64,000 nucleotides of DNA from Candidatus Binatia bacterium (GTDB lineage Bacteria; Desulfobacterota; Binatia; UBA9968). Positions 41,876-64,000 of this stretch are shown piece by piece. The notes beneath the pieces were generated by a model. It was not told where the DNA came from and ran no database searches. It was given only the letters and a program-made list of their open reading frames with translations. Numbering within the stretch: the stretch's first letter is position 1; each line of letters begins with the position of its first letter. The stretch spans positions 22,502 to 86,501 of the forward strand of contig JBGPGE010000003.1 in the NCBI GenBank assembly GCA_041483675.1, written 5' to 3'. Both the position numbers and the translations under genes were made by a program.

Positions 41876-41944
41876 GCCAGGGGAATATAGCTCCATCGAT
41901 CGAGGTTGACAATGCGGCGGGGGATTACGTTTAATGAAGGCCCT

Positions 41945-45736: not shown

Positions 45737-45779
45737 CCCGTTCGACTATACTCAGGGTCATGGTGAGGAAGATCGAACC

Positions 45780-47910: not shown

Positions 47911-47933
47911 GGCTTTTCCTAATTCAATATCAC

Positions 47934-49520
47934 TCAGAATTTCACAAATATATGTTTGGCGCCATCAACGTTTAGGCCGGTCAGCTGCTTGATGGTGGTG
48001 ATGCGGTCGCTGAATTCTTTCAGCGTGCCGAGGGAGCTGGAGCCGACGTCGATGAGAATCGAGTAGAGCGAGAAGCCCAGCCTCTCCTTTTCGTCGCGAA
48101 AGTGTTCCGCCCACTCCGCCGCTACCTGGCACTCACCGTCGGTGATGAAGACAACGTCGCCCTTTTTATATTTGGATTGCTTGAGGCATTCGAGCGCGGC
48201 GTCCAGCGGCTTTTGAAAGTCCGTCCCGCCGCCGGGGAAGTATTCGGCCAGGTCCATCACTTTTTCCATTTCGACCTGGTAGTGGGCTCGCGGATTCATG
48301 TCGAGGACCTGAAGCGGCTGGTCGCCGGAAGAGAAACAGATCGAGCGGAAGAGCCGCCGCTGGCGGCGGGCGATTTCGAGCAGCGTCAGCGTCACCGCTT
48401 TCGACCAGACCTCCTTATCGCCGGCCATCGACGAGCTGCCGTCGAGACAGACGATCATCGGCCCTTTGCCTTTCTCCTCGACGCCCCTGAGGGAATACTG
48501 CAGCAGCTCCTGGTCCAACAAGCGGCGGTAGAAATCCTTCCGCAGCAAGGGGTGGGAGAGCGTGAGCAGCTCGTGCGGCAGCAAGCGATGGAGCGCGTCG
48601 CCTCTTTCGACTTCAAGAACCTCTTCGCTCGAGCGCTCGAAAATCTTCTTGCGCAGCGCCAGGGCGTGAAACTTCATCCGCCCCAGCATCCGGCTGAGCT
48701 TTTTGAGCTTCTCGTTTCCCGCGAGCCGCTTGCCGAGTTCGATCTTTTGCCCGGCGGGCGAGCGGTAGCCGGCGCCGAGGGTGAGACCCCAGGTCTCGGC
48801 CTCCTCGGCCGCGTCTTCAAGCTTCTGAGTCGCCTTGATCGCCTCGGCCTGAAAACGGTTAGCTGCCTGGGCCTGATTCTGCTGAAACTCTTCCGCGAGT
48901 CTCCGGGACTTTTGCCGCAGCAGGGCTTCGGCGCCGCTCAGCTCTCCGTCCAACCTGTCCTTCGCCCGATCTATGGCCCGCTGCTTCTCCTTGTCGCCGG
49001 CCTGTTCGTCCGAGAGCTTTTCGGCCTCCGTAAGCTCTTGGCGCTTCTCCTCGAAGACTTCTTCCTGTTTTTTGAGATCCCAGAGATCCAGCATGTCGCG
49101 GCGTGTCAGAAGCTTCTCCGATTTAAGCAGCGAGACGAGACTCTCGGCGAGGAGCATGGTGCAAAGCCCCGCCTTCGCCTCATCCAGCAGCGTCATCTCA
49201 CGCAAGATTGGGTAGAGGTTTCCCCGGCGCAGCCCGTCGAGGAGCGTGCGGTTGAAAAGCGCGCTCTGCAAGACCTCGCCTTCTTCGAGAACAATGATGT
49301 TGTTCTTGAATAAGAGGCAAAACAGGTCCTGCAGCAACGAGGGAAAATGGGGCAGGAAGGTTACGCCGCTCTCCTCGGCGGAGCGCAGCGACGGCGACTC
49401 TTGGCGGAGATTTGCGAATGCCCTCCGATCATAGGCGTCGCTCTCGATCCAGCAGGAATTTTTCGGCAGCGGCTGGGGGATTCTTCTTGGGGCGGGAATC
49501 TTTTGTTTCTTCCGTGCCAT
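47934..49520 (-). CDS. VWA-domain protein (ViaA/CoxE-like partner of MoxR-class ATPase)
   Basis: C-terminal von Willebrand A domain with MIDAS-like DGSSSM and ITDG. A long coiled-coil/charged N-terminal region precedes it. Start set at the ATG preceded by GAGGCGG. Confidence 0.7.
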   Translation of the reverse strand: MARKKQKIPAPRRIPQPLPKNSCWIESDAYDRRAFANLRQESPSLRSAEESGVTFLPHFPSLLQDLFCLLFKNNIIVLEEGEVLQSALFNRTLLDGLRRGNLYPILREMTLLDEAKAGLCTMLLAESLVSLLKSEKLLTRRDMLDLWDLKKQEEVFEEKRQELTEAEKLSDEQAGDKEKQRAIDRAKDRLDGELSGAEALLRQKSRRLAEEFQQNQAQAANRFQAEAIKATQKLEDAAEEAETWGLTLGAGYRSPAGQKIELGKRLAGNEKLKKLSRMLGRMKFHALALRKKIFERSSEEVLEVERGDALHRLLPHELLTLSHPLLRKDFYRRLLDQELLQYSLRGVEEKGKGPMIVCLDGSSSMAGDKEVWSKAVTLTLLEIARRQRRLFRSICFSSGDQPLQVLDMNPRAHYQVEMEKVMDLAEYFPGGGTDFQKPLDAALECLKQSKYKKGDVVFITDGECQVAAEWAEHFRDEKERLGFSLYSILIDVGSSSLGTLKEFSDRITTIKQLTGLNVDGAKHIFVKF

Positions 49521-49542
49521 GTTCCGCCTCATAACTAAAAAC

Positions 49543-50661
49543 TTAAAACTGCTCGAGCATTTGCTTCTGCATCCCTTCGATCTCTTCTTTGACTGCGCCG
49601 ACGCGTTCTAGCGGGCGGCCGAGCTCTCTCGCTTTCTCCACGATCTGGTCCACTTTTGCCAGGATGTTGCGCAACTTGGTGTGGACTTCGATCAGCGCGC
49701 GGGCGCGCTCGTCGCTGGTGGGCCAGGGGCGGAGCGCGGAATCCCGAATCTCGCGCGACTCGTAGAGCAGCTCTTTGACCTCTTCTTCGTAGCCTTGGAT
49801 CAGGTCGCGGATCGTAGCGCGGACTTCGACCTGCTCGGCGGGGTCGCGCCAGAGCGCATGTTCGATAAAGAACAGATCGCTGTCCCGCACTTCCTCCTGT
49901 CCCGCGAGGTAGGCGTGGGCCTGGAGCAAACCCAGGCACTGCCGGTAGCGCCGGTCCGACGGCTCGAGAGATTTCTTTTTCAGCTCGCGCCGGATATCGG
50001 CGATGGAGCGATAGATGCCGGCGGGGATGCGAAGGCCTCCGGCCTGTTTCTGCATCTCACGCAGTTCGTCCAGGGTGATCGTGGTGCGCTCGGCCGGCGC
50101 GGCGGCTTCGAGCATGCGGAGAAAACGGAAGTCCTCCGCGATGTAGCTGACGACAAAGCGGAGCAGAAAACGGTCGTAGAGCGCGGTCAGCTCGTCGTCC
50201 TCGGGCAGCTCGTTGCTCGCGCCGAAGAGCGTGAGCAAGGGCACGGGGACGATCTCCTTGCCGTTGTGAAAGATGCGCTCGTTGATGAGCGCGAGAATGG
50301 CGTTCAAAATGGAGGAGTTCGCCTTGAAAATCTCATCGAGAAAAGCAATGTGCGCCTCGGGGAGCTTGTGGGCCGTGACCCTGCGGTAGTCGTCTTGTTC
50401 CAGCGCCTTGAGACTGACCGCGCCGAACAGCTCCTCAGGCGTCGAGAAGCGGGTGAGCAGCCATTGAAAGTAGCCGGCCCCTTCGATGCGGCGGCAGATC
50501 TCGTCGGCGAGCATCGACTTGGCCGTGCCCGGCGGGCCGATGATCAGCAGGTGTTGGGAGGAGAGCAGGGCGCAGAGCGTGCCGTCGATCAGCTCGCCCC
50601 GTTCGAGAAAGATCTGCCGGAGTTCGTCGCGAATCTTCTTGAGCTTTTCCTGAGCGCTCAT
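49543..50661 (-). CDS. MoxR-class AAA+ ATPase, RavA-like
   Basis: LLIIGPPGTAKSMLADEI (Walker A), TRFSTPEELFG, and HIAFLDEIFKANSSILNAILALINER align closely with E. coli RavA. It lacks the RavA LARA domain (372 aa). Confidence 0.75.
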   Translation of the reverse strand: MSAQEKLKKIRDELRQIFLERGELIDGTLCALLSSQHLLIIGPPGTAKSMLADEICRRIEGAGYFQWLLTRFSTPEELFGAVSLKALEQDDYRRVTAHKLPEAHIAFLDEIFKANSSILNAILALINERIFHNGKEIVPVPLLTLFGASNELPEDDELTALYDRFLLRFVVSYIAEDFRFLRMLEAAAPAERTTITLDELREMQKQAGGLRIPAGIYRSIADIRRELKKKSLEPSDRRYRQCLGLLQAHAYLAGQEEVRDSDLFFIEHALWRDPAEQVEVRATIRDLIQGYEEEVKELLYESREIRDSALRPWPTSDERARALIEVHTKLRNILAKVDQIVEKARELGRPLERVGAVKEEIEGMQKQMLEQF

Positions 50662-50724
50662 GCGTGCCTTAAACCTACCAAAGGGCATCGGGAGAAACAA
50701 TCAGGATAGGATCGAGGCTTCCTG

Positions 50725-50767: not shown

Positions 50768-51880
50768 ATGAATCCCGAGATCGTGGAAAAGCAAAAGAAA
50801 GCGATAGCCGACGCCGGCCTGGACGCGCTCGTCGCGCTCTCGCCCGAGAACGTGACTTACGCGACCGGGATCGTCGTGCCGTCGCAGTCGCTCATGCGCT
50901 GGCGGCACGCGGCTGCCGTCGTGACCGCCGACGGTCGGGTTTCGATGCTCGTAATCGACATGGAAGAAACGACCGTCAAGAGCCATTCCAAGATCCGGCG
51001 GATCGAAGTCTACCAGGAGTTCAGCGACGACCCGATGGAGAAACTCGCCGGGCTGTTGCAGGAGCTTGGGTTGGCCAAGGCCAGGCTTGGCATTGAGATG
51101 GATTATCTTCCGGCGAAAGATTTCCAGACGCTGCAGCGGAAACTTCCGGGCGCCTCTTTCGTCGCCGGACACGCCATTTATCACCGACTCCGGCAGGTGA
51201 AGACGCGCGCCGAGATCGATCTGCTGCGCTCGCTCAGCAAAATCACCGACCGCGCCATCGGCGAGACTTTACAAAGCGCTCGTATTGGGATGACGGAGAT
51301 GGAGCTTGCGGGTGGGCTGGTGAGCCGGCTGTTCGTCGGAGGAGCGGAGAACTTCAAACTGATGATTATCGCTTCCGGCGAGCGCAGCCAATATCCGAAC
51401 GTCGGGCCTACGGAGCGCCGTCTCCAGGGAGGCGATCTCATCCGCATGGAGATCTTCGGGATGAAAAGCGGCTACCTCGCCGGCGTATGCCGCACGGCCG
51501 TGGTGCAAAAGCCGACCCCCGAGCAGGAGAGAATCTGGAAACATCTGATCGAGTGCAAGTATCTTGTCATGGATACGCTCAAGCCCGGGGCGAAGTGTAA
51601 GGAAATCTATCGAAAATTTCTCGCCCGTTTCAGCGCGCTCGGCTTCGAGCCGATCGGCTTCGTCGGCCACGGCATCGGCCTCTTTCTCCACGAGGAGCCA
51701 TATCTCGGCCGCTACGGCGACGAGACTCTGGAAGAGGGGATGGTGGTGGCGATCGAGCCTCTGGTGTACATCCCCGGACGGATGGGGTTGCAAAATAAGG
51801 ATATGCTCGTGGTGACGAGCGACGGTTGCGAGCTGCTCTCCGACTGCACGGCGACGGACGAGCTGCTCCGCGTCGGGTGA
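50768..51880 (+). CDS. M24-family metallopeptidase (Xaa-Pro aminopeptidase/creatinase-like)
   Basis: Creatinase_N-like N-terminus plus a pita-bread domain with HGIGLFLHEEP and metal ligands D, D, H, E, E in order. Confidence 0.8.
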   Translation: MNPEIVEKQKKAIADAGLDALVALSPENVTYATGIVVPSQSLMRWRHAAAVVTADGRVSMLVIDMEETTVKSHSKIRRIEVYQEFSDDPMEKLAGLLQELGLAKARLGIEMDYLPAKDFQTLQRKLPGASFVAGHAIYHRLRQVKTRAEIDLLRSLSKITDRAIGETLQSARIGMTEMELAGGLVSRLFVGGAENFKLMIIASGERSQYPNVGPTERRLQGGDLIRMEIFGMKSGYLAGVCRTAVVQKPTPEQERIWKHLIECKYLVMDTLKPGAKCKEIYRKFLARFSALGFEPIGFVGHGIGLFLHEEPYLGRYGDETLEEGMVVAIEPLVYIPGRMGLQNKDMLVVTSDGCELLSDCTATDELLRVG

Positions 51881-51886
51881 ATCGCG

Positions 51887-53041
51887 ATGAAGATCTCGAA
51901 GATCGAAACGATCCCGATCAGGCTGCCGACGCGGCGCGTTCACCAGTGGTCGAGCCTCACGACGCCGATCGGCGTCTATGTGATTCTTAAGGTAGCCACG
52001 GACGAAGGGCTGATCGGCCTCGGCGAAGCGCCGGTGCTGAAGGACTGGGGCGGCGATTACATGAGATATTACGGGGAGACGCCGCAGACGACCGTCCACG
52101 TCATCAACGATATCCTGGCGCCTGCGCTGGTCGGCCGGGACCCGCGCTCCATCGCCCTGCTTCATTCCGTCATGGACAAGGCGATCAGGGGATATCCCTA
52201 CTGCAAGGCGGCGCTCGACATGGCGCTCTACGATCTTGCCGGCAAGGCCCTCGGCGTGCCCGCGTATCGACTGCTCGGCGGCTGTTACCGTAGGCGCGTG
52301 ACCGTGGCGCACAGCATCGGCTTGATGGAGATTGAGAAGGCGGTGGAGGAAGCAGTCCAGGTAAAAAGCGAGGGAATCAAAACTATTAAACTCAAAGGCG
52401 GGCAGGCGTCGAAGCGCGATGTCGAGCTGGTCAAAGAAATACGCAACGCCGTAGGTCCGGATATCCGGCTCGCGGTCGACGCGAATCAGGGCTACCCGAC
52501 GCCGAAGATCGCGGTGCAAACGATCAGGGCGATGGAGAGCTACGGGATTCATTATATGGAGCAGCCCGTCGAAGGGATCGACGCGATGGCGCTGGTGGCG
52601 GAGAGCGTGGAAACTCCGATCATGGCGGACGAGAGCGCCTGGACGCCTCAAGATGTGCTTGAGATTATCCGCAAGAAAGCCGCGGACATCATCTCGATCT
52701 ATACGACCAAGCCCGGTGGTCTTTACAAGGCGAAGCAGGTTGCGGCCGTGGCCGAAGCCGCGGGTCTTCAGTGCAACGTGAACGGCTCGGTGGAGACGGG
52801 CGTGGGAAACGCGGCGAACGTGCATCTCGCCGCTTCCACCGCCGTCGCGTCTCTGGCCTGCGTGATCCCGGTCTCGACGCCGAAGGGAAAGGGCAGAGGC
52901 GGAATCGCCGGCGTTTACTACACCGACGACATCATCACCGAGGCGTTCGAGTACACGGACGGCGAGGTTGTGGTGTCCGACAAGCCGGGGCTGGGAGTTG
53001 AGCTGGATGAGGAGAAAGTTGAGCGCTACCGCGCGGACTGA
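51887..53041 (+). CDS. Enolase-superfamily mandelate racemase/muconate lactonizing enzyme family protein (possible dipeptide epimerase/racemase)
   Basis: KLKGG..., LAVDANQGY and IMADES motifs are the MR/MLE metal ligands and KxK. An N-terminal capping domain is present. Confidence 0.8.
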   Translation: MKISKIETIPIRLPTRRVHQWSSLTTPIGVYVILKVATDEGLIGLGEAPVLKDWGGDYMRYYGETPQTTVHVINDILAPALVGRDPRSIALLHSVMDKAIRGYPYCKAALDMALYDLAGKALGVPAYRLLGGCYRRRVTVAHSIGLMEIEKAVEEAVQVKSEGIKTIKLKGGQASKRDVELVKEIRNAVGPDIRLAVDANQGYPTPKIAVQTIRAMESYGIHYMEQPVEGIDAMALVAESVETPIMADESAWTPQDVLEIIRKKAADIISIYTTKPGGLYKAKQVAAVAEAAGLQCNVNGSVETGVGNAANVHLAASTAVASLACVIPVSTPKGKGRGGIAGVYYTDDIITEAFEYTDGEVVVSDKPGLGVELDEEKVERYRAD

Positions 53042-53043
53042 AC

Positions 53044-54174
53044 GTGAGTATTCATAGCATCGCAGTTTTAGGGGCGGGCAACGGCGGCTGCGCGGCGGCG
53101 GCGGATCTGACGCTACGGGGTTATGAGGTCCGGCTCTACTCGCGCGCCGAGAAAACGCTTGAGCCGATCCTGAAGAGAGGCGGTATCGAGTTGGTTGAGG
53201 CGGGCAAAAACAATTTTGCGAAGCCGTCGCTGATCACGAACAAGTTGTGCGAGGCGGTGGCGGGGGCCGATCTCATCATGATCGCGGCTCCCGCCGTTGC
53301 GCACGAGACGCTGGCGACAAATTTGGCAGGCTGCCTGAGCGACGGCCAGATTATTTTTCTCAATCCCGGTCACACGGGCGGCTCGCTTCACGTTGCCGCG
53401 CTGTTGCCCCGCCTCGGCGTCCCGGCGAAGGTCCAAGTATGCGAGACGGTCACGCTGACCTACATCTGCCGCTTGACCGGCCCGGCGCAAGTTGAAGTCT
53501 ATCGTCGCACGGAGAATCTCCGCTTTGCCGCGTTTCCGGGGAAGTTGACCGCGCGCCTGTTGCCGGAGATCGGCGAGGTCTATCCCAAAATCATTCCGGC
53601 TGCGAATGTGCTGGAGACCGGGCTGTCGAATATCAACGCCGTCATGCATCCGGCGGGCATGGTGGGCAACGCGGGGCGGATCGAGGCCGGCCGGGGCGAC
53701 TTCTATTTCTATCGGGACGGTATCACGCCGGCGATCGCTCACGTCATTGGCGCGGTCGATCGCGAGCGGATGGCTATCGGGCAACGCTTGGGGCTTCCGC
53801 TTCTTAGCTTCGTCGATATTTTTCATCAGGCCGGCCTCACCAGCGACGCGGCGCGGCAGAGCCAATCCATTTACCAGGCGACGCAGGAGAGCGCGGCCAA
53901 CCGGACGATCAAGGCGCCGCGGACCTTGAACCATCGCTACTTGAATGAAGACGTCGGCTTCGGCCTGGCGCCGATCTCCGAGCTCGGGCGGCTTGTGGGC
54001 GTCGAGACGCCCGTGATCGATGCGCTCATCACCCTCGCCTCTGAGCTGAATCGAATCGACTACCGGTGTGAGGGAGTGACGCTAAAGAAAATGGGGCTGG
54101 CTGGGGTAAAGCCGGAGAATCTCAAGGCACTGCTTCACGAAGGGTTCGCAGCACCGGACAGGAGCGTGTCATGA
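53044..54174 (+). CDS. NAD(P)-dependent opine (octopine/nopaline) dehydrogenase-family oxidoreductase
   Basis: N-terminal IAVLGAGNGGCAAAADL Rossmann motif and the C-terminal opine dehydrogenase helical domain. The call is by motif and architecture. Confidence 0.7.
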   Translation: MSIHSIAVLGAGNGGCAAAADLTLRGYEVRLYSRAEKTLEPILKRGGIELVEAGKNNFAKPSLITNKLCEAVAGADLIMIAAPAVAHETLATNLAGCLSDGQIIFLNPGHTGGSLHVAALLPRLGVPAKVQVCETVTLTYICRLTGPAQVEVYRRTENLRFAAFPGKLTARLLPEIGEVYPKIIPAANVLETGLSNINAVMHPAGMVGNAGRIEAGRGDFYFYRDGITPAIAHVIGAVDRERMAIGQRLGLPLLSFVDIFHQAGLTSDAARQSQSIYQATQESAANRTIKAPRTLNHRYLNEDVGFGLAPISELGRLVGVETPVIDALITLASELNRIDYRCEGVTLKKMGLAGVKPENLKALLHEGFAAPDRSVS

Positions 54175-55148
54175 GAGTCGGACTCTGCTTCGATGGTTTT
54201 TATTCGATCACCGAGATGGTGGAGCTGGCGCGGCTGGCGGACGAAGCGGGCATGCATTCGATATGGATGTCCGATCATCTGTGCTTTCGCGACTCTCTGA
54301 CTTCCGCGATGGCCTTCCTCGCCACGACGAAGAGGATCACAGTAGTCCCGGCGCCGCTAAGCCCCTACACGCGTCATCCGATGGTTTCCGCCATGGCGAT
54401 CTGCACGATGGACGAGCTCGCCCCTGGAAGAGTCTGGGCGACGGCGGGCACGGCCAACGCCGCGGCGTTGGCCGAGATCGGCGTCACGGTTACTCGGCCC
54501 CTGAAGACGATGCGGGAGTACATGACGATCCTGCGGAGCTTTTTGCGAGGGGAGACGGTGAAGTTTCAGGGTGAGATTTTTAGAATCAACGGCGCCAAGA
54601 TGGGCTTCGCCCCGGCAGCCCACATACCAATCTATATGACCGCGGTGAAAACCCGGATGCTCAGGCTTGCGGGAGAGATCGGCGACGGCGTACTGCTGTC
54701 CGCGGGTTGCGCGCCGAAGTATATCGCGCAGTGCGCCGCGGAGGTAAAGAGCGGGGCGGAGAAAGCGAGGAACGGCGTTACGCGGCGCGATGTGGCCGGC
54801 TTCATCACGACGTCGGTCTCGTCGAACGCTCGCGAGGCGATCGACGCCAGCAAGGGTTACCTGGCCTATATATTTCGCAATAAACACCACGCCGAGAATA
54901 TTGGCATGGGCGGGGGCCGGGTCGATCGGGAACGTCTCGCGGCGGCGATCGCGAATAGGGATTGGGAGGGCGCAAAAAAGTTTATAAGCGACGAGGTGGT
55001 TTACGCCCATTCCATCACGGGAACCCCAGCGGAGTGCCGCAGGCGGCTGGACGAGTTCATCGAAGGCGGGCTCGACCTTCCGGTTCTCCTGCCGATGGGG
55101 ACGCAGGAGATGAGGAAGCAAGTAGTTGAACTGGCGCGACGGCTATAA
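54171..55148 (+). CDS. LLM-class (luciferase-like) flavin-dependent oxidoreductase
   Basis: TIM-barrel LLM signatures: SIWMSDHL, PLSPYTRHPM, GIGMGGG-type. Confidence 0.8.
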   Translation: MRVGLCFDGFYSITEMVELARLADEAGMHSIWMSDHLCFRDSLTSAMAFLATTKRITVVPAPLSPYTRHPMVSAMAICTMDELAPGRVWATAGTANAAALAEIGVTVTRPLKTMREYMTILRSFLRGETVKFQGEIFRINGAKMGFAPAAHIPIYMTAVKTRMLRLAGEIGDGVLLSAGCAPKYIAQCAAEVKSGAEKARNGVTRRDVAGFITTSVSSNAREAIDASKGYLAYIFRNKHHAENIGMGGGRVDRERLAAAIANRDWEGAKKFISDEVVYAHSITGTPAECRRRLDEFIEGGLDLPVLLPMGTQEMRKQVVELARRL

Positions 55149-55208
55149 TAAACTCGGGGCTGCGTGGAGCGACATAGTGTTGGAATTCTCAGTGGAGGTG
55201 ACCTGAAG

Positions 55209-56228
55209 ATGCGTAAAACAAATGGGTTGTCGGTTGTGGGCCTGCTCGCCATCGGCACGCTTCTGTGTTCCCCGGTCGCTGCTCAGGCGCAGCCTGCGAA
55301 CGTGGATGCGGCCAAGAAGGAAGGGGAGGTCGTGGTCTATGGCTCGGTCGTGCCGCAAGCCATGGAGGGCTTGAATAAAGGATTTGAGAAGAAATACGGC
55401 ATCGAGGTCAAGTACTGGCGCGGCTCGTCGACACAGGTCTCGGAGCGCGCCCTGACGGAATGGCGCGCCGGCAAGCCGGCCTTCGACATCGCGGAGGGGA
55501 ACCGGGGCGTTCAACTGATTATGAGAGACGAGGGGCTCTTCACGAAGTACATCCCGCCTTCATCGGACAAGTTTCCGGCGCAGTTTAAAGAGAAAGACGC
55601 TCTCATCACACCCTGGCGCGTGCTCCCGATCAGCATTCTCTACAACACCGACATGGTGAAAGCCGGCGATGTCCCGAAGACGCTGGACGATCTGTTGAGT
55701 CCCAAGTGGACCGGGAAGATCAGTATGCCCGACCCCACGCGGCACACGACCACGGCGCAGTTTCTCTGGAATCTCTCGAAATTCAAGGGCGACAAGTGGC
55801 TCGATTATGTCAAGGCATTGGCGAAACAGAAGCCGCTCCTGGTGGAATCCCTGGCGCCGGTTGCGCCGGCGATCATCAAAGGCGAGGTGCTGGTCGGGAT
55901 CAGCTACATAAAATACCTGAAGCAATATAAAGGTCCCCTGGGCTATGTCCTGATGGACAAGTATCTGACCGATCCGAACTACATGAGCCTCAGCGGAAAG
56001 GCGGCGCATGGGAATGCAGCCAGGCTCTACATCGATTACGCCTGTTCGCCGGAGGGTCAGAAGGCTATCTCCGAAGACGGCGAGTTCGTCTTGTCCCCGG
56101 GAATCTTTCCGCCCATCAAAGATTCGGAGAAGGTCGCGCCGAACATGGTCTTCATGGACAATCCGTCCGAGGAAGAGTTCAAAAAGCTCATGGGCGACAC
56201 GTTCCGGCAGATCTTCTTTGCCAAGTAG
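55209..56228 (+). CDS. ABC transporter periplasmic substrate-binding protein (Fe(III)/FbpA-like family 1)
   Basis: Signal peptide MRKTNGLSVVGLLAIGTLLCSPVAAQA. GEVVVYGS. start. Typical type II PBP. GGAGGTG RBS. Confidence 0.75.
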   Translation: MRKTNGLSVVGLLAIGTLLCSPVAAQAQPANVDAAKKEGEVVVYGSVVPQAMEGLNKGFEKKYGIEVKYWRGSSTQVSERALTEWRAGKPAFDIAEGNRGVQLIMRDEGLFTKYIPPSSDKFPAQFKEKDALITPWRVLPISILYNTDMVKAGDVPKTLDDLLSPKWTGKISMPDPTRHTTTAQFLWNLSKFKGDKWLDYVKALAKQKPLLVESLAPVAPAIIKGEVLVGISYIKYLKQYKGPLGYVLMDKYLTDPNYMSLSGKAAHGNAARLYIDYACSPEGQKAISEDGEFVLSPGIFPPIKDSEKVAPNMVFMDNPSEEEFKKLMGDTFRQIFFAK

Positions 56229-56293
56229 CAGGGCGCTGAAAGGCCCGTCCGTTCCGTTGCGCTCGAACCGCCCGCTCCGACGTGCTGTTGAGT

Positions 56294-56346
56294 GGAGTAC
56301 TGGAGTGATGGAGTAATGCATTTAAAACCTAATACTCCAGTACTCC
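56294..56346. repeat. Intra-operon inverted repeat / stem-loop GGAGTACTGGAGT...ACTCCAGTACTCC
   Basis: Perfect 13-bp inverted repeat with a 27-nt loop, flanked by further partial complementarity. It lies in an unusually long 215-bp spacer between the binding-protein and permease genes. Confidence 0.6.
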
Positions 56347-56443
56347 CATCCTCCAACACTCCATGTCCGTCGGACGCCTTCGCTCGACCGTTGATCTTTA
56401 CGCATGTCGCTGCGGCTCAGGGTCGCCCTCATTGAGCTGATCC

Positions 56444-58147
56444 ATGCGACCGCTTTTCCAAAATCCCCACACCGCGGTGGTCGCCGTCGTCGCCGTGGTG
56501 ATCGGCTACCTGAGTCTCTCGCCGACGCTGATGCTCTTCTACGGCAGCTTTCTCAGCAAGCCGCTCGGCGTGCCGGGGAATTTTACCTTTGCCCACTACG
56601 TCCAGGCTTACGCCGACCCGTCGACTTACCAGCTCCTGCTCAACTCTTTTCTCTTTGCCGCCGGCTCCTCCCTGCTGGCTACAGCGCTGGCCGCCGCTCT
56701 GGCATGGATATCGGTGCGGACGAACGCTCCGTTCCGACGGCTGTTCGAGCTGACGGCGATCATTCCCAATATCTTTCCGCCGGTAATGCTGGCGGTCGCC
56801 TGGACAGTGTTGCTGAGCCCGCGGACGGGCCTGATCAACCGGCTATTTATGGAGCTGTTCGGCTTGGAAAGCGCGCCGCTCGATATCTACTCGATGTGGG
56901 GAATGGTGTTCGTCGAGGCGCTGATCACCACGCCGCTCGCGTTTTTAATTATCTCCGCGTCGCTCTATTCGATGGACCCGTCCCTGGAGGAATCCGCTAG
57001 AGTGGCGGGCTCCAGTAATCTGCAAATCGCCCGGCGCATCACCTTCCCGATCATCCGGCCCGCCATGCTCGCGGCGGCGACGCTCAATTTCGTGCGCGCG
57101 ATCGAGAGCTTCGATACGCCGGCGATCATCGCGCTGCCGGCGCGGATCGAGGTCTTCACCACCAAGATTTACCGCGAGGCCGTCGGAGCCTTTCCGCCGA
57201 ACCAGAACGTTGCCGCCGCCTATGCCGTCTCGCTGCTGCTGATCACGATGCTGTTCGTCTATTTCTACCGGCGGCTCACGATGCGCTCGGAGCGTTACGT
57301 GACCGTGACCGGGCGCGGTTATCGTCCGATGGTCATCGACTTGGGCAAGTGGCGCTATTTCGCCGCCGCGGTCGCCGCCGCGATCTTGCTGCTGATCGTC
57401 GTGCTCCCGTTCGTCGTGCTGCTGTATGCTTCCGTCGTAACCTATGTTCACGTGCCGGGAACGAAAACCTGGGATCTGCTGACGCTCGACAACTACCGCG
57501 GGAATCTGACGGATACGCGCACCTATCGCGCGCTAAAGAACAGCCTCATCCTTGCCGTCGGAGGCGCGACGCTGTGCATGCTCCTCGCGGCCGTGACAGC
57601 CTATGTAACGACGAAGACCAAGGCGGCGGGAAGAGGGTTAATCGAAGCGCTCACCTTCATCCCCTGGGCCTTTCCTGGCACGGCGCTCGCCATCGGACTG
57701 CTCTGGACCTATGTTTATATTCCGCTGCCGATCTACGGCTCGCTGTGGATTCTGTTGATCGGCTATATCACGCGCTTCATGCCTTACGGGCTTCGGACCA
57801 TGACCAGCACCGTGGTGCAAATCCACGATGATATGGAGGATGCTTCGAAAACCTGTGGCGCCGGCTTTTTTTCGACGTTCCGGCGCGTGCTACTTCCGCT
57901 GATGAGACCGGGGTTCATCGCGGGTTGGATTATTCTAGCCACGATCTATCTGCGTGAGTTCAGCACGTCGATTTTCCTCTACTCGCCGGGGGCTGAGCCG
58001 ATCGGTCCTTTGCTCTATCATTTCTACGTCGATGGGAACCTCGGGCCCATGTGCTCACTCGGCGTGATCGTGAGCGTTGTTTCTGTTTTGCTCATCATGC
58101 TTGCGCGTAGGATCGGTAAGGTTCGAGAGAATTTTGAGGGAGGATGA
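56444..58147 (+). CDS. ABC transporter permease, fused two-domain (FbpB-like iron(III) permease)
   Basis: 567 aa, ~12 TM helices, two EAA-like loops. No ATPase gene follows. Confidence 0.8.
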   Translation: MRPLFQNPHTAVVAVVAVVIGYLSLSPTLMLFYGSFLSKPLGVPGNFTFAHYVQAYADPSTYQLLLNSFLFAAGSSLLATALAAALAWISVRTNAPFRRLFELTAIIPNIFPPVMLAVAWTVLLSPRTGLINRLFMELFGLESAPLDIYSMWGMVFVEALITTPLAFLIISASLYSMDPSLEESARVAGSSNLQIARRITFPIIRPAMLAAATLNFVRAIESFDTPAIIALPARIEVFTTKIYREAVGAFPPNQNVAAAYAVSLLLITMLFVYFYRRLTMRSERYVTVTGRGYRPMVIDLGKWRYFAAAVAAAILLLIVVLPFVVLLYASVVTYVHVPGTKTWDLLTLDNYRGNLTDTRTYRALKNSLILAVGGATLCMLLAAVTAYVTTKTKAAGRGLIEALTFIPWAFPGTALAIGLLWTYVYIPLPIYGSLWILLIGYITRFMPYGLRTMTSTVVQIHDDMEDASKTCGAGFFSTFRRVLLPLMRPGFIAGWIILATIYLREFSTSIFLYSPGAEPIGPLLYHFYVDGNLGPMCSLGVIVSVVSVLLIMLARRIGKVRENFEGG

Positions 58148-58160
58148 GAAGTAAAAAGTA

Positions 58161-58181
58161 AAAATGCAAAATGCAAAATGC
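58161..58181 (+). repeat. Tandem heptamer (AAAATGC)x3 spanning the M20 gene start
   Basis: Seen directly. It creates four closely spaced ATGs, two in frame. Confidence 0.6.
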
Positions 58182-59370
58182 AATGGAAGCGCTAGAAGCT
58201 AAGAAAATAATTGAAGCAGGACTGCGATACGAGGAGGTTAAGAGGCTTCTCGTAAAGCTCGTGCAGGCGGCGAGCCCGCAGACGGAATTGCTGGAAGAGG
58301 AGCCGAAGGTTCTGGCGCTGATTCGGGATGTCATCAAGCCGGAGCTGGAGAGTGCAGGGCTGCGGCCTGCGATCGATGACCAGGGAAATCTTCTCGTCAG
58401 GCTCGCCGGCAAGGGAGGCGGCAAGCGGCTCTTGCTCGTCGCCTATGCGATGAACGCCGCCCCTAGCACGATGAAGAATCCCTATTCGGGTGAGATCGTG
58501 GACGGAACGCCCTATGTGGCTCAAGGCGAGTGCATCTGGGGCCGGGGCGCCTGCGAGCAGAAGGGGAGCCTGGCGGCGATGATGGCGGCGATCAAGCTCA
58601 TCGCCGGCAGCAAGGCTGAATTGCCGGCCGATCTTTACTTCGTCACGAGCACGGCGGGCGAAACGGGGCGGCATGATTCTCTGGCTCACGTGCTGGACTA
58701 TGGCAAGGTAGAGGCCGACTGGGGAATCATCGACGGCCCTCCCGAGATACAGCTCGGCAACAAGGGGCGCGTCGATATTCTGGTGATTGTCCGGGGCAAG
58801 CAGGCGCACAGCAGCCGCCCGTGGGACGGCATCAACGCGATCGAGGGGGCGGTAAAAGTTTTGGAGAAACTTAAGCCGCTCATGCCTTATCCCTCCGAGC
58901 GCGCGCACCCCGATCTTGGCAAGGTCTCCTTGACGCCGACTTCGATCGAGAGCTTTCCCAAAGCGACGCACACGATTCAGAACGAGTGTCGGATCGTATT
59001 CGACCGCAGATTGCTTCCGGGCGACGATCCCGCGGCCGCGATTGAGGAACTCGAAGCGGCGATCGGCAAGATCGAGCCGTTTGAGATCGAAGTTCAGAGG
59101 AGAGATTTCATGTATCCGAGCGAAGTATCGAAGGACTCCGATGTCGCCCGAGCGCTCAGCCGGGCCGTCGAGACGATGCTCGGCTGCGAGGCGAAATACA
59201 GCTATTCGACGGCGGCCAACGACACCGGCCTGCTCAATGTAAGAGGGATTGAGGCCGTAAACTACGGCTCGCGGGATATCCGCTTCCAGCACACCGACCA
59301 CGATCTCGTGTCGGTAAAGAACGTCTTCGAAGCGGCCAACGTATTTGCCTTCATGGCGCTCTGCCGGTAA
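58171..59370 (+). CDS. M20-family metallopeptidase (ArgE/DapE/carboxypeptidase-like)
   Basis: AYAMNAAPST, GRGACEQKGSLAAM (D/E-K-G) and HSSRP-type motifs. Dimerisation lid region. Start lies inside a heptamer repeat. Confidence 0.8.
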   Translation: MQNAMEALEAKKIIEAGLRYEEVKRLLVKLVQAASPQTELLEEEPKVLALIRDVIKPELESAGLRPAIDDQGNLLVRLAGKGGGKRLLLVAYAMNAAPSTMKNPYSGEIVDGTPYVAQGECIWGRGACEQKGSLAAMMAAIKLIAGSKAELPADLYFVTSTAGETGRHDSLAHVLDYGKVEADWGIIDGPPEIQLGNKGRVDILVIVRGKQAHSSRPWDGINAIEGAVKVLEKLKPLMPYPSERAHPDLGKVSLTPTSIESFPKATHTIQNECRIVFDRRLLPGDDPAAAIEELEAAIGKIEPFEIEVQRRDFMYPSEVSKDSDVARALSRAVETMLGCEAKYSYSTAANDTGLLNVRGIEAVNYGSRDIRFQHTDHDLVSVKNVFEAANVFAFMALCR

Positions 59371-59385: not shown

Positions 59386-60145
59386 TTACTCAAACGATAG
59401 CATCGCGCCGTGGGTCAGGCGGGAGTCGAATAGCGGTTTCTCTTTCGCGGTCGAACGAAGAGTCGCCGCGTAAGGCGAAGAGCCGTTTTGCTCAAGCCGC
59501 CGCGCGAGCGGACTCTTGCCGGCGGGCGTGAGAAACTTGAGCTTGTGCGGGCCGATTTCAAACGCCAGCCCGTAGGCCTCGATATCAGGCCGCTTCACGG
59601 CCGTTCCATCGACTCCCAGCGCGCTTCGATACCAATGGCTGACCTGCGGGAGATCTGCGACGGCGACGGTGATCGTACCGATACCAAGCGCTCCGTTTCG
59701 GTGCACGGTCTCTCGCGGAATCCGCTCTTCTCTCGGCGTCTCGTCCTGGATCAAAAACGGGGCGACTCCTCGATGCTCGCCGCGCGCGAGAGATAAGAGC
59801 CACTTCAGTTGATAGCCGTCCGGGCGCGTCCTGCTCCACGGAACGGGATCTTCGATCTTCACGCCGGCGGCGCGGAGTCTAATTGTGTCGCCGATCAGAT
59901 CGTCCGTCTGCATGCAGAAATCGACGAAACCTTCGCCACGTTGAAGGGCGGCCCACCAGCGATGGTCGGGGTTGTCCCGATAAAATGCGATCAGCTCGAT
60001 GTAGGCGCCGTCGGCGAAGGCGACCAGGACGTTGTGCGTGCCGACGGGGTGCTTTCCACCGGGGACAACAGTAAAGCCGAGCGTCGTGTAGTCTTTTGCC
60101 GCCGCATCCAGGTCGCGGACGGCAATGACGATGTGATCGATGCCG
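59386..60145 (-). CDS. VOC-family (glyoxalase/bleomycin-resistance/extradiol-dioxygenase fold) protein, two tandem domains
   Basis: GIDHIVIAVRDLDAAAKDYTTLGF and a second GIGTITVAVADL-type beta-alpha-beta-beta-beta module. Confidence 0.7.
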
Positions 60146-60158
60146 AGGAGCATGGAGG

Positions 60159-61163
60159 CTAAGAAGTAAACGCCGGGACGACTTCGTTGAGAAAGCGCTT
60201 GAGCTGGTAATCCTGCTCCCACGAGGTCAAGCGGAGCGTGATGTGCTGCAGGCCGGCGCTAAAGTATTCCTTTAACTCTTCGATGCAATGCTTCGGACTG
60301 CCGGCGGTGGTAAACCCCTCGACGAACGCCGCGCTGAAGTTCGAGGTGTAGTACTTATCGAGAAACGCCTTGCTCTCGGCCAGGGCCGCGTTGCGATCTT
60401 CATTGATATTGATGTTGTGGTAGAGGGCGTTGCCCAGCTTGCCGGGGTCCCGGCCTTCCTCCGTGGTCATCGCCAGGATGCGCGCCCACTGGCGGCGGAA
60501 TTGCTCCGGGCTGACCTTGTTAGTCATCCAGCCGTCGGCGTAGCGCGCCACGCGGCGGAAGCTGCGCTCGATAATCGGTTCAGCGGCGCTCGCGCCGTCG
60601 CGCCACGTGAGCCCCGTGGGGTTGCTGGCGATCCAGATAGGGCAGGGCTGCTGCACGGGTCGCGGCTCCAGCGTAACATTCTCGAACTGATAGAAGCGGC
60701 CCTGGTGAGAGGCGTTTTTCTCCGCGAACAGTTTGCGCAGGATGACGATGCCTTCTCCGAGGCGAGCGGGGCGCTCTTTCGCCTCGATGCCCATCACTTT
60801 GTGTTCCAGCGCTTGCGCCGCGCTCTGTTCGTTCGGACCGCCGAGACAGACGCAGAGCCATGAGCGTCCGTTGGAGATCAGGTCGAGGCTCGCCCACTGT
60901 TGGGCGAAAAGTATCGGGTGGCGATGGACGAAGGTCGCCATGCAGCCGACGGCAAGACGCACTTTCGTCGTCACGGCGGCGAGCGCGGAAAGCAGCGCGA
61001 CGGACTCAAGCCGAGGTTTGGCCAGCAGACTGTCGCCGACCCAGACCGCGTCGAACGCGCCGGAGGATTCCGCCTGTTGAGTCATGTGGATCAGGTCGCT
61101 CGCTTTCACCGCGCCGATGATGACGCCGCGGTTGGCAAGAGTAAGGCCGAAGGATGCATTCAT
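60159..61163 (-). CDS. LLM-class flavin-dependent oxidoreductase
   Basis: Luciferase-like TIM-barrel signatures: AVWVGDSLL, NGRSWLCVCLGG. Confidence 0.8.
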   Translation of the reverse strand: MNASFGLTLANRGVIIGAVKASDLIHMTQQAESSGAFDAVWVGDSLLAKPRLESVALLSALAAVTTKVRLAVGCMATFVHRHPILFAQQWASLDLISNGRSWLCVCLGGPNEQSAAQALEHKVMGIEAKERPARLGEGIVILRKLFAEKNASHQGRFYQFENVTLEPRPVQQPCPIWIASNPTGLTWRDGASAAEPIIERSFRRVARYADGWMTNKVSPEQFRRQWARILAMTTEEGRDPGKLGNALYHNININEDRNAALAESKAFLDKYYTSNFSAAFVEGFTTAGSPKHCIEELKEYFSAGLQHITLRLTSWEQDYQLKRFLNEVVPAFTS

Positions 61164-61328
61164 GGTTCTCTGCGTACTCGAAGTGAGAACGGGTTGTCAA
61201 GGGACTAATCGGTGTAGGCAAGAGCGACCGCTCCGCTCATTCGCTCCAGCGCCCGGAACCGTCACTCCCGCCCCCGATCGGAGTCGAGGGCAGGCTCGAG
61301 CGGGAGTCCAGGATTGGGAGGGGCCTGG

Positions 61329-61348
61329 ATTCCCGTTTGCACGGGAAT
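61329..61348. promoter_or_regulatory. Perfect palindrome ATTCCCGT-TTGC-ACGGGAAT, candidate operator
   Basis: 8-bp inverted repeat with a 4-bp spacer, ~40 nt upstream of the UbiD start in the 223-bp divergent spacer. Confidence 0.4.
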
Positions 61349-61386
61349 GACTCAAGTACTAAGGTGCAAGCCTTGGGAGGATTTAT

Positions 61387-62973
61387 ATGGCGGCAAGCTT
61401 CAGAGATTATCTGCAGACTCTGCGCAAGCATGACGAGCTAATACAGATATCCAAGCCGGTCGATCTTCGCAATATCGCGGCGCTCGTGCCGCAGTCCGAC
61501 AAGGCGCTGCTTTTTTCCAACGTGCGCGGCTACTCCATGCCCGTCGTCTCCGGCTTGCTCCAGTCGAGAAATCGGTTGGCGCTGGGGATGGGCGTGGAGT
61601 ACGGCGGGATCGAAGCCAAGCTCCGTTCGGCGATGGACCATCCGATCAAGCCGAGGATTGTGAAGCAGGCGCCGGTGAAAGACGTCATCCTGACGAAGAA
61701 CAAAGTGGATCTGTACCGGCTTCCCGTGCCGATTTTCTCCGTCATGGACGGTGGACCGATGATCACCGGCGCCGTGGTCATCGCGCTGGACCCCGAGTAC
61801 GGGATGAACGCCGGGATGTATCGCCTTATGCTGAAAGAGAAAAATGTCACCGGCATCGACATCGTGACGCCGAACAATTTGCGACGCTATGCCGAGCGCG
61901 CCTTGCAGAAAAAAAAGCCGCTGCCGATCTCCATGTCGATCGGCGTCCATCCCTACGAAATGGTCGCGTCGACCTTCAAAGCCGCGCTGGGGGAGAATGA
62001 GCTGGGCTATGCCGGAGGGCTCAGGCGCAAGCCGCTTGCGCTCGCGGAAGGGGAGACGGTTCCCGTCCCCTGCATCGCCGACGCGGAAATTGTTCTTGAG
62101 GGCGAGATCATCCCGGAAGGCTGGACGCAGAGCGAAGGGCCGTCCTCGGAATTCAACCGCCTGATGGGCGGCATCCACCTCAACCCGCGGGTGCGGATTA
62201 AGGCGATCATGCACCGGCGCGATCCGATCTACTACGCGCTGCATATGCCGTGGGAAAATATCTGGATGAGCGCGCCGATCTACGAAGCGGCGGCGTTTCG
62301 CGTGTTGCGCGAGGCGGGTGTGGCGGCGACCGCGATCAACGTAACGCCGGGCGGCTGCTGCCACTGGCACATCGTCGCGGCGATCAAGAAACAGCCCGGC
62401 GACGGCAAGAACGCGATCATGGCGCTGCTTTCGATTGCCGACATCAAACACGTCGTGGTGACGGACGACGACATCGACATTTTCGATCCGGTCGATCTCG
62501 AATGGGCGCTGGCGACACGAGTCCAGGCGGATCGCGACGTGATCGTCGTCTCCAACGCGCGGTCGAAGCCGCTGGATCCGTCATTGCCTCCGACGAACGG
62601 CATCCCGACGACGGCGAAGATGGGAATCGACGCGACAATTCCGGAGAACGTCCCGCGAGAGCGCTACAGGCGGATCGTCTACGTCAACGAGGGAAAAGTT
62701 CAACTGAAGGATTATCTAGGATCGCAGGCGGACACGGGGCAGCGAAGCGTCAGAACCGCGGCGGCAGCCGACGCCGGCTCAGTCGAACAGAAGATTCTCG
62801 ACAGCCTGTCAAAGTCGCACAGGTTCTTCGCGGATATTCTTGGACTGTTCCCTAGAGAAGATTTCGGCGCTATCGCCCGCGCGATCGGCGAGCTGACGAG
62901 CGCGGGAAAAATCACCCAGGACGGCGACGGAAAGTATCAACCGGCGGTGGAAGGCTTGAGCCAGACGCGGTAG
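61387..62973 (+). CDS. UbiD-family decarboxylase, second paralog, with C-terminal extension
   Basis: Collinear UbiD domain (DGGPMITGAVV, MPWENIW...) followed by a ~70-aa tail. 528 aa. Confidence 0.8.
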   Translation: MAASFRDYLQTLRKHDELIQISKPVDLRNIAALVPQSDKALLFSNVRGYSMPVVSGLLQSRNRLALGMGVEYGGIEAKLRSAMDHPIKPRIVKQAPVKDVILTKNKVDLYRLPVPIFSVMDGGPMITGAVVIALDPEYGMNAGMYRLMLKEKNVTGIDIVTPNNLRRYAERALQKKKPLPISMSIGVHPYEMVASTFKAALGENELGYAGGLRRKPLALAEGETVPVPCIADAEIVLEGEIIPEGWTQSEGPSSEFNRLMGGIHLNPRVRIKAIMHRRDPIYYALHMPWENIWMSAPIYEAAAFRVLREAGVAATAINVTPGGCCHWHIVAAIKKQPGDGKNAIMALLSIADIKHVVVTDDDIDIFDPVDLEWALATRVQADRDVIVVSNARSKPLDPSLPPTNGIPTTAKMGIDATIPENVPRERYRRIVYVNEGKVQLKDYLGSQADTGQRSVRTAAAADAGSVEQKILDSLSKSHRFFADILGLFPREDFGAIARAIGELTSAGKITQDGDGKYQPAVEGLSQTR

Positions 62974-64000
62974 CCGTTGTTGGGATAGTTGAGCGCGTCG
63001 ATCTGGAATTGTTTCAACTCCGGCATCGCCCGGTCGGCAAAACGTTTCACAGACTTCATCACCTTGTCGTGTTCCAAGGCGCCGAAGGTAAACTCGCCTA
63101 GGAAACAGTCCGCGCCCGCCTGCGAGGCGATCTCCTTGATTTGCCGGACGACGGTATCGGGCGAGCCGCAGATGAAAGAACCCTCCTTGATGGCGTGATC
63201 GACATCGAGCAGCTCCTTTTTCCGCTCTTCGCGCGTGACGGTGGCGAGGTTCTCATTGCCGTAAGCGCCGTAGGCCCTGCCGCCGCCGACGCGGTGCCAG
63301 AAGTAAATCCAGTGCTCCTTGGCATCCTCGTAGGCCTGCTTATCCGTCTCTCCGACGTAGATTTCGCGCATCAGGGCGACGTGCGGCGCTCTGCCGTTGG
63401 GTTTGACCTTGCGGCGGACTTCACGGAAATAGTCGAAGATTTCCCGCACCACCTCCATTTTGGGCGGGCACCATTGCACGGTGCTCATGCCCTGGGTGGC
63501 CGCCGCTTCGACCGATTCGCGGCTGCGCGTCGGCATCCAGAGCGGAGGATGGGGTTTTTGTACCAGCGGGACGTTCAGCTCGGCATGCCGGACGTTGAAA
63601 AACTTGCCCTGATAGCTGTACTTGGGATTGGCCCACATGCCTTTCATGATTTCGAACGCTTCCCACATGACATCGTTTTTATTGTCCCACGGGGCGTCGT
63701 AAGCGCCGAAGGCGTACTTGCCGATGCCGCTGCCGATGCCGCATTCGAGACGGCCGCCGGTGATGTTGTCGAGCATCGCGACCTCTTCGGCGACGCGGAC
63801 CGGATGCCATAGCGGGAGGACGTAGACGAGCGGGCCGAGGCGGATTCTCTTGGTCCGTTGCGAGGCGGCGGCGATCCAGGCGCCGGGGCTGGCGCATTCG
63901 GCGAAGCCCATGTCGAAATGGTGCTCGGCGACGAAATAGTAGTCGAAGCCGGCTTCGTCGAGAAACTGCACCATGTCCAGGTGGCGGGCATAGAGGTTCT
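62937..64000 (-). CDS. LLM-class flavin-dependent oxidoreductase (partial; N-terminus beyond window end)
   Basis: FVAEHHF and the luciferase-like barrel. The reading frame stays open from the listed ATG (63974) to the window edge, and the upstream residues ...NLYARHLD match the canonical LLM N-terminus. Confidence 0.75.
   Translation of the reverse strand, partial: NLYARHLDMVQFLDEAGFDYYFVAEHHFDMGFAECASPGAWIAAASQRTKRIRLGPLVYVLPLWHPVRVAEEVAMLDNITGGRLECGIGSGIGKYAFGAYDAPWDNKNDVMWEAFEIMKGMWANPKYSYQGKFFNVRHAELNVPLVQKPHPPLWMPTRSRESVEAAATQGMSTVQWCPPKMEVVREIFDYFREVRRKVKPNGRAPHVALMREIYVGETDKQAYEDAKEHWIYFWHRVGGGRAYGAYGNENLATVTREERKKELLDVDHAIKEGSFICGSPDTVVRQIKEIASQAGADCFLGEFTFGALEHDKVMKSVKRFADRAMPELKQFQIDALNYPNNGYRVWLKPSTAG

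Follow-up and report, generated by a model that had tools for sequence, protein, structure and literature searches.

In the Cnt systems for staphylopine, pseudopaline, yersinopine and bacillopaline, an Octopine_DH-family enzyme is encoded together with an adjacent ABC importer (PMC7438024). A second reference point is the N-(1-D-carboxyethyl)-L-norvaline dehydrogenase (CENDH) of Arthrobacter sp. 1C, whose keto acid substrates include pyruvate and glyoxylate (PMC7438024). CENDH is the only characterized opine dehydrogenase from bacteria; what it does physiologically, and which genes surround it, was never established. The occ and noc systems of Agrobacterium have flavoprotein oxidases (OoxAB and NoxAB), an arginase and polar-amino-acid-type transporters. 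Here we compare with these and two further systems a set of seven genes at positions 50768–59370 of a 64,000-nucleotide stretch (the window) of contig JBGPGE010000003.1 from Candidatus Binatia bacterium (assembly GCA_041483675.1). The genes form an operon that is real, strongly conserved, undescribed and built from known enzyme families. Our reading, tentative and held with well under even confidence, is that it takes up an amino-acid-derived secondary amine and catabolizes (or salvages) it, the likeliest substrate being an opine-like N-(1-carboxyalkyl) amino acid or its masked precursor.

All seven genes are co-directional on the plus strand in the list of open reading frames (ORFs). In order, they encode an M24-family protein with a Creatinase_N (creatinase/prolidase N-terminal) domain (50768–51880), an MR/MLE enolase-superfamily enzyme with MR_MLE_N and MR_MLE_C domains (51887–53041), an Octopine_DH-family dehydrogenase (hereafter ODH; 53044–54174; PF02317, 152 bits against a cut-off of 30), a luciferase-like (LLM) oxidoreductase (54171–55148; Bac_luciferase, 182 bits), a periplasmic binding protein of the SBP_bac_6/8 type (55164–56228), an ABC permease with two fused BPD_transp_1 stretches (56444–58147) and an M20 homolog with Peptidase_M20 and M20_dimer domains (58171–59370). 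Pfam and NCBIfam confirmed the ORFs and families given in an earlier sequence-only reading of this DNA. That reading also described overlapping stops and starts; the tight packing holds, but the only true overlap is the 4 nucleotides between ODH and LLM. The M24 and MLE genes are 6 nucleotides apart and MLE and ODH 2 nucleotides apart; there are 15 nucleotides between LLM and the first possible start of the binding protein, 215 before the permease and 23 before the M20 gene. Together these genes constitute a real operon. Rfam and tRNA scans of the window gave no matches, and a scan for promoters and terminators returned counts at or below the shuffle expectation.

With the Cnt systems the operon shares an Octopine_DH-family enzyme beside an ABC importer, but it has no CntL, CntK, CntM-like sequence or CntE exporter, its binding protein is of another class, and it has extra hydrolase and epimerase genes. 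With Agrobacterium occ/noc it shares a logic, namely a binding-protein-dependent importer, an opine-cleaving oxidoreductase, a guanidino/amide hydrolase and, in one type of related locus (type B, below), a gene of the ornithine cyclodeaminase (OCD) family; OoxAB, NoxAB, the arginase and the transporters are, however, not homologous to the operon proteins. The ectoine/hydroxyectoine genes eutABCDE/doeAB likewise combine an M24-fold ring-opening hydrolase, a deacylase, a racemase-type enzyme, an OCD-family reductase and an importer. Against this, scores to their products fall far below the equivalog cut-offs, the racemase of the operon belongs to the enolase superfamily, and nothing in the ectoine gene sets corresponds to ODH or LLM. 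Lastly, the Bacillus cereus operon that pairs an N-succinylamino acid racemase (BC0371, 2P88) with an M20-family enzyme for D-to-L conversion supplies the best solved relative of the enolase-superfamily enzyme and a similar M20 pairing; the Binatia operon differs in having no succinyltransferase, in the degenerate site of its M20 protein and in its invariable linkage to ODH, LLM and M24.

Conservation was assessed by tblastn of the window proteins against 84 related loci (about 80 species-level genomes). Of the 69 loci that could be evaluated for the genes upstream of ODH, 68 have M24 and MLE there with order and strand unchanged, and LLM lies downstream of ODH in all 70 evaluable loci. The clustering of M24, MLE, ODH and LLM is thus far beyond chance, and co-conservation in relatives, which had been set beforehand as a possible point of refutation, turned out to be strong. 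ODH relatives number in the hundreds at 60–87% identity, nearly all in metagenome-assembled genomes of Candidatus Binatia or "Deltaproteobacteria". The closest relative, a RIFCSPLOWO2_12_FULL_60_19 contig (locus L005), is syntenic over the whole region. We found no description of this gene combination in the literature on opine dehydrogenases and on Binatia/Binatota, and the Binatota genome paper mentions neither opines nor F420.

Forty-four loci had enough flanking sequence for typing. In 23 of them (type A, like the window) one or more binding proteins, a permease and an M20 gene follow the core; 17 others (type B) have a divergent OCD/mu-crystallin gene upstream of the core, and the remaining 4 have neither flank. 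The type-B locus examined in detail (L025) has two OCD genes, with a bona fide M20D amidohydrolase downstream. Because the flanks vary while the four-gene core is kept, the core is the conserved unit, and the transporter and M20 genes are a frequent accessory. Some loci depart from these patterns. Two loci (L001 6510–7637; L012 5585–6694) have a further ODH paralog directly upstream of M24; it shares 51% identity with the window ODH and is slightly nearer to alphaproteobacterial ODH than the main copy is. In one genome of roughly 5.6 Mb (L002/L003) the operon is split: a DruA-domain gene and an IS66-family transposase lie between the enolase-superfamily gene and ODH (7069–9410), and there is a large transposase between the OCD gene and M24. 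Some type-A loci have a gamma-glutamyltranspeptidase gene after M20 (L086 18086–19730; L004 17507–18625), which hints at gamma-glutamyl compounds as related substrates.

A search of all Protein Data Bank chains placed ODH nearest to CENDH (1bg6), with 243 bits for the single sequence and 275 bits for the family profile, aligned over residues 5–361. The profile also matched octopine dehydrogenase (OcDH) of the scallop Pecten at 59 bits; all other chains scored 23 bits or less, over the Rossmann domain only, and no chain named as a staphylopine-type dehydrogenase (CntM) was matched at E ≤ 1. CntM-type chains are deposited in the Protein Data Bank, which is consistent with the structural study cited in PMC7438024. 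By these comparisons ODH is on the CENDH branch of the Octopine_DH family, not the CntM branch. The homology to CENDH is full-length at about 40% identity, and the catalytic residues—His202, the pair Arg298-Tyr299 and Asp303—are kept and invariant in the family. Grouping with unrelated ApbA/KPR-family reductases had been named in advance as a possible refutation, and ODH groups instead with CENDH. An identity as ketopantoate reductase (KPR)/ApbA was rejected, as KPR matches reached about 19 bits, over the N-terminal Rossmann domain only, and the NCBIfam score was 34 against a cut-off of 223. Two differences from CENDH stand out. Unlike that orphan enzyme, ODH is part of a conserved operon. In addition, where the NAD-specific CENDH has an Asp at the end of the second Rossmann strand, the ODH family has an invariant Ser33-Arg34, which by the usual Rossmann-fold rules suggests NADP(H) as cofactor.

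The enolase-superfamily enzyme meets the MLE-subgroup signature: a KxK motif at the end of strand 2 (Lys168, Lys170), Asp/Glu/Asp metal ligands (Asp198, Glu225 and Asp248) and a Lys at the end of strand 6 (Lys275), all invariant in 76 sequences. It is probably an MLE-subgroup Cα epimerase or racemase, or else a dehydratase, and since all catalytic residues of two-base racemases are kept it is, on this evidence, catalytically competent. The best solved match was B. cereus N-succinyl-Arg/Lys racemase (2p88, 208 bits), the other leading ones being an uncharacterized Azoarcus protein (2qde), a muconate-lactonizing enzyme and the dipeptide epimerases 3jva and 1jpm. Alignments to 3jva and 1jpm end at residue 318; the region there has a 14-residue family-specific insertion and, after it, an invariant Asp347-Asp348. 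Other solved entries scored lower (4mgg, 123 bits; 4h2h/2pmq, 91 bits); their database names are MR/MLE-family enzymes only, and we take 4mgg to be a cis-3-hydroxyproline dehydratase and 4h2h/2pmq to be proline-betaine epimerases. All NCBIfam scores were below cut-off, including that to cis-3-hydroxy-L-proline dehydratase (NF043002), an assignment we rejected at 150 bits against 500.

Both hydrolase-type proteins of the operon are atypical. The M24 protein matches Peptidase_M24 (140 bits) and Creatinase_N, and among solved structures it scores highest, at 132 bits, against an Xaa-Pro dipeptidase of Deinococcus, with solved DoeA at 55 bits. However, the canonical Asp-Asp-His-Glu-Glu metal ligands read Glu228-Gly239-His301-Glu330-Lys344 in all 72 orthologs, and the conserved prolidase His aligns with Asn211. 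Because ligands of the dinuclear site are replaced and the conserved His is Asn, M24 cannot be a canonical prolidase; with a PepQ score of 125 against a cut-off of 630, the M24B Xaa-Pro dipeptidase assignment was rejected. So was ectoine hydrolase (DoeA/EutD), at 88 against 575 and 79.5 against 613. Creatinase, too, is without most of these dinuclear-site ligands. The M20 protein gave no match at E < 1e-10 in a single-sequence search of solved structures, so that a family profile was used for the comparison. Three alignments to solved DapE/ArgE showed Glu129 in place of the bridging Asp and the Glu-Glu pair reduced to a single Glu164, both residues being invariant among the aligned orthologs. 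With one Glu and the bridging Asp missing, and with all NCBIfam scores below cut-off (TIGR01910, 126 against 218), a DapE/ArgE deacylase was rejected. Judged by these residues, neither M24 nor the type-A M20 protein is a canonical metallopeptidase.

These three proteins bear on the possibility that the operon salvages D-amino-acid dipeptides or N-acyl-D-amino acids, with the enolase-superfamily enzyme epimerizing the dipeptide or N-acyl amino acid, M24, M20 or M20D hydrolyzing the L-form, and ODH and LLM processing the released amino acid or being peripheral. In Geobacillus and Bacillus, the pairing of racemase and M20 hydrolase is an established D-to-L pathway. The best solved relatives of the enolase-superfamily enzyme are N-succinyl-Arg/Lys racemase and dipeptide epimerases, and hydrolase homologs are always encoded next to it, namely M24 throughout, M20 or M20D in the Binatia loci and an Amidohydro_1 enzyme in Alphaproteobacteria. 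Such salvage nonetheless seems unlikely, because M24 and the type-A M20 protein are without the canonical metal or catalytic residues, no N-acyltransferase is present, and the invariable linkage to ODH and LLM is left unexplained. Moreover, the alignments to dipeptide epimerases stop at residue 318, ahead of the region where one would expect the DxD motif that follows strand 8 and holds the ammonium group of the dipeptide.

All ten best solved matches of the LLM protein are F420 enzymes, as are its top NCBIfam matches. The highest-scoring structure is methylene-tetrahydromethanopterin reductase (Mer; 1z69, 146 bits). A Mer assignment was rejected, though this is the nearest solved structure, because the scores lie below both equivalog cut-offs (179 against 276 and 178 against 349). 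By its nearest relatives the protein is Mer-like and probably F420-dependent.

The M24, MLE and ODH genes recur together outside Binatia, on alphaproteobacterial plasmids. Protein-level plasmid searches found MLE orthologs at 50–52% identity in Aminobacter, Shinella and Phyllobacterium, in islands on Shinella sp. HZN7 pShin-03 (L091 10237–19659), Aminobacter aminovorans pAA01 (L092 10196–30954) and a plasmid of Phyllobacterium zundukense Tri-48 (L090 10754–23607). In the annotated regions examined, an M24-family gene lies directly beside the MLE gene; the one ortholog aligned, from Phyllobacterium, is 54% identical to the window protein and has the same Glu-Gly-His-Glu-Lys site. A CENDH-type ODH (37% identity) follows 4–9 kb downstream on the same strand. 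The island order is enolase-superfamily gene, M24, amidohydrolase, (DadA, malate synthase G), ODH, DpaA-like dehydrogenase, amidohydrolase, 4-OT and isochorismatase, then GntR, RidA, a GTPase, an NMT1-type ABC transporter with its own ATPase, and PntAB; the D-amino-acid dehydrogenase (DadA) and malate synthase G genes stand directly upstream of ODH in Aminobacter and Phyllobacterium. Thus, co-directional MLE, M24 and CENDH-type ODH, an ABC importer and further C–N hydrolases are shared with the Binatia operon, whereas MLE precedes M24, LLM and M20 are absent, the transporter is NMT1-type with its own ATPase, and the amidohydrolases, DpaA-like dehydrogenase, 4-OT, isochorismatase, RidA, DadA, malate synthase G, GntR and PntAB are extra. 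Since the trio of M24, MLE and ODH is kept in both Binatia and Rhizobiales and LLM is not, the trio is the part conserved across phyla. The gene content of the islands is a catabolic context, and the Rhizobiales island appears uncharacterized. More distant plasmid ODH homologs adjoin uptake carriers and GntR regulators.

The redox enzymes and the island genes would also suit the breakdown of a cyclic amidine or cyclic imino acid, for instance an ectoine-like ring or an analogue of proline, hydroxyproline or pipecolate, an alternative that is close to the opine reading and relies on identical chemistry. M24 would open or release the ring, the enolase-superfamily enzyme would act as a dehydratase or 2-epimerase on the model of cis-3-hydroxy-L-proline dehydratase or hydroxyproline-betaine epimerase, and ODH, LLM and the type-B OCD proteins would be NADPH- or F420H2-dependent imine reductases yielding an L-amino acid. 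Such a function would parallel the family composition of eutABCDE/doeAB (M24 hydrolase, deacylase, racemase and the OCD-like EutC), to which there are weak but consistent matches: DoeA at 88 bits, DoeB2 at 142 bits for the type-B M20D protein and EutC at about 95 bits. The 150-bit match to cis-3-hydroxy-L-proline dehydratase points the same way. The NADP-type Rossmann motif of ODH, the F420-type LLM, the two OCD/mu-crystallin genes in the type-B locus examined, and the D-amino-acid dehydrogenase, RidA and DpaA-like dehydrogenase genes beside ODH in Aminobacter and Phyllobacterium are consistent with it as well. In the biosynthesis of lincomycin and of pyrrolobenzodiazepines, cyclic imines are reduced by LLM enzymes that depend on F420H2. 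On the other hand, all such matches are 3- to 6-fold below the curated cut-offs, the enolase-superfamily enzyme scores higher against N-succinyl amino acid racemase (208 bits) than against 4mgg (123) or 4h2h/2pmq (91), and we know of no Octopine_DH member that is a cyclic imine reductase. A cyclic substrate is therefore possible, if on the doubtful side.

The binding protein has a signal peptide, MRKTNGLSVVGLLAIGTLLCSPVAAQAQ, seen directly in the sequence, and its true start is likely the ATG at 55209. It belongs to the Pfam families SBP_bac_6/8/1/11; among solved structures an iron-binding protein of Thermus scores highest, at 64 bits, and the match list also holds the AfuA sugar-phosphate and P5PA pyridoxal-phosphate binders. 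No adjacent Tyr-Tyr pair occurs in the mature protein, and the iron ligands did not map reliably in the alignment. The "Fe(III)-type" label behind the earlier argument for a metallophore is a family or class name and no evidence of the ligand. Curated NCBIfam scores were low (PhnS2, 60 against 393; sfuA, 19 against 93). The permease is PhnU2-like at 178 bits against a cut-off of 593, and is 75–85% identical in relatives; PhnS2 and PhnU2 assignments were rejected on these scores. The 215-nucleotide spacer between the binding-protein and permease genes contains an imperfect inverted repeat, or hairpin, of GGAGT-type units (56293–56363), with arms of 13 nucleotides at 100% and 23–26 nucleotides at 73–78% complementarity; the motif occurs 5 times, where shuffled sequence would lead one to expect 0.6. 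The hairpin may be an intercistronic stabilizer or an attenuator.

The sequence-only reading held that the window has no ABC ATPase. There is one, at 44110–44913, the only one in the window, and it belongs to a separate and complete phosphonate-type PhnD/C/E/E transporter on the plus strand (42966–46661), with a Phosphonate-bd binding protein and two permeases; the point that the transporter of the cluster is without an ATPase stands. Some related loci have ATPases nearby. A complete NMT1/SsuA-type ABC transporter (ATPase, two permeases and binding protein) is inserted between MoxR and M24 in two of them (L018 4003–7572; L048 2858–6389), and an ABC ATPase match lies in the equivalent upstream region of two more (L014 163–705; L017 4189–4731). 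ATPases near related loci were rejected as the missing partner, since they go with an NMT1-type transporter that is complete in itself and encoded on the other strand. An NMT1-type transporter is also present in the alphaproteobacterial island, and may be a recurring alternative importer.

The lean of the sequence-only reading toward a staphylopine- or pseudopaline-type metallophore is not supported. On that view the operon would make an opine-type metallophore, or another opine-like product, and the ABC system would re-import the metal complex. Octopine_DH-family enzymes do catalyze the last step of Cnt synthesis (PMC7438024). The NADP-type signature of ODH would suit such a role, the class of the binding protein includes Fe(III) binders, and in type-B loci the importer is not next to the core. 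Yet every defining Cnt component is missing except the membership of ODH in the Octopine_DH family. As had been stated before, there is no CntL/NAS-like gene in the window (about 55 ORFs scanned with Pfam), and there is none in the Pfam-annotated related loci L001–L004, L085 and L086. The ODH profile found CENDH and OcDH but no CntM-named chain, no exporter lies in or beside 50768–59370, no SBP_bac_5 (Opp/Nik) importer is present, and the similarity to iron binders is weak. Nor do the known pathways, of two or three enzymes, account for the three hydrolase-type genes and the epimerase. We regard a metallophore as highly improbable.

Catabolism of an opine-like compound is the single most likely reading, held tentatively. 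The relation of ODH to CENDH, with its catalytic His, Arg, Tyr and Asp kept, together with the co-conservation of the genes, leaves the proposed metabolism of an opine-like compound reasonable once its metallophore lean is dropped. Most proteins of the module handle a C–N bond or the Cα of an α-amino or α-imino acid. ABC transporters of the binding-protein-dependent class are known only as importers, and finding one encoded with hydrolase homologs speaks for a compound that is taken up and broken down. Support comes from this importer, from the hydrolase-type partners and from the alphaproteobacterial islands with their regulator and assimilation genes. The enzyme families, the intact catalytic residues of the enolase-superfamily enzyme and ODH, the degenerate metal sites of M24 and M20, the operon structure and the co-conservation are observed; which class of substrate is used, in what order and direction the steps run, and with which cofactors, is our inference. 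The binding protein and fused permease would import the compound with an ATPase encoded elsewhere. The atypical M20 and M24 proteins might then strip an acyl, amidino or peptidyl group from it by hydrolyzing a C–N bond in a non-canonical way, for M24 by analogy with creatinase and ectoine hydrolase, which have the same fold. The enolase-superfamily enzyme would abstract the Cα proton next to the carboxylate and invert that stereocenter, giving the isomer accepted by the dehydrogenase. ODH would interconvert secondary amine and imine with NADP(H), so that the N-carboxyalkyl bond is cleaved (or formed); cleavage would yield an amino acid and a 2-oxo acid. The Mer-like LLM protein would carry out a second C–N redox step, probably with F420.

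Several observations weigh against opine catabolism. Every enzyme is below the cut-off of every curated NCBIfam equivalog. M24 and M20, given their degenerate sites, may not be hydrolases at all. The Ser33-Arg34 signature of ODH and the probable F420 enzyme suggest reductive steps, which fit imine reduction or biosynthesis as well as oxidative opine cleavage. Moreover, the transporter and M20 are absent from 17 of the 44 typed loci and are hence accessory to the core, and no ATPase for the importer was found in the cluster or in the block of binding protein, permease and M20 at any related locus.

Directly upstream of the operon and divergent from it, on the minus strand at 46678–50700, is a MoxR-VWA ternary-type system, consisting of a MoxR AAA+ ATPase with a bpMoxR domain, a VWA-domain protein and a 410-residue protein without a Pfam match; the position of the MoxR gene is kept in several relatives (L005, L006, L009, L010, L057, L069 and L072). 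Downstream, at 59386–63974, lie genes for a Glyoxalase_3 protein, two F420-type LLM proteins (60159–61163, LLM2, and 62937–63974) and a UbiD-family decarboxylase (61387–62973), with a second UbiD paralog at 38507–39943. The Glyoxalase_3, LLM2 and UbiD genes were rejected as operon members, being syntenic within the type-A clade only and convergent or separate. The minus-strand gene at 40778–42796 encodes a 672-residue protein with a C-terminal GCV_T aminomethyltransferase domain and about 300 N-terminal residues without a Pfam match. Farther upstream, positions 1–34200 form a large envelope-polysaccharide region with many GT2, GT4 and GT9 glycosyltransferases and a Kdo/WaaP-type kinase. There, a fused ATP sulfurylase/APS kinase gene (15374–17092) adjoins a sulfotransferase gene (17174–18205), and there are also genes for a NeuB-cupin fusion (21032–22753) and a B12-binding radical SAM protein (27068–28540). 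Taken together, the gene content of this region suggests a sulfated glycan.

The occurrence of the trio in culturable Shinella and Aminobacter allows direct testing by genetics and growth assays, and so offers a handle on the Binatia operon. Should that operon prove to be only a lineage-specific amino-acid salvage operon, the result would be an ordinary one. A bolder proposal, and a rather improbable one as we see it, is that the trio, taken as a non-metallo M24 hydrolase, an enolase-superfamily Cα epimerase and a CENDH-type dehydrogenase, defines an undescribed pathway for degrading N-(carboxyalkyl) amino acids, whether opines or ubiquitous glycation products such as carboxymethyl- and carboxyethyl-lysine. 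If true, the pathway would bring an "opine epimerase" into the enolase superfamily as a new activity, would in Binatia involve an F420-linked C–N redox step, and would give a bacterial opine dehydrogenase discovered in 1989 its first physiological role. The long-orphan CENDH-type opine dehydrogenases would gain a physiological context, the enolase superfamily a new reaction specificity and the M24 fold a new metal-poor branch. The gene set is present in most of the sampled Binatia, which are abundant, uncultured bacteria of soil and groundwater; if they degrade N-substituted amino acids with it, a function would be assigned to a gene set that most of them carry.

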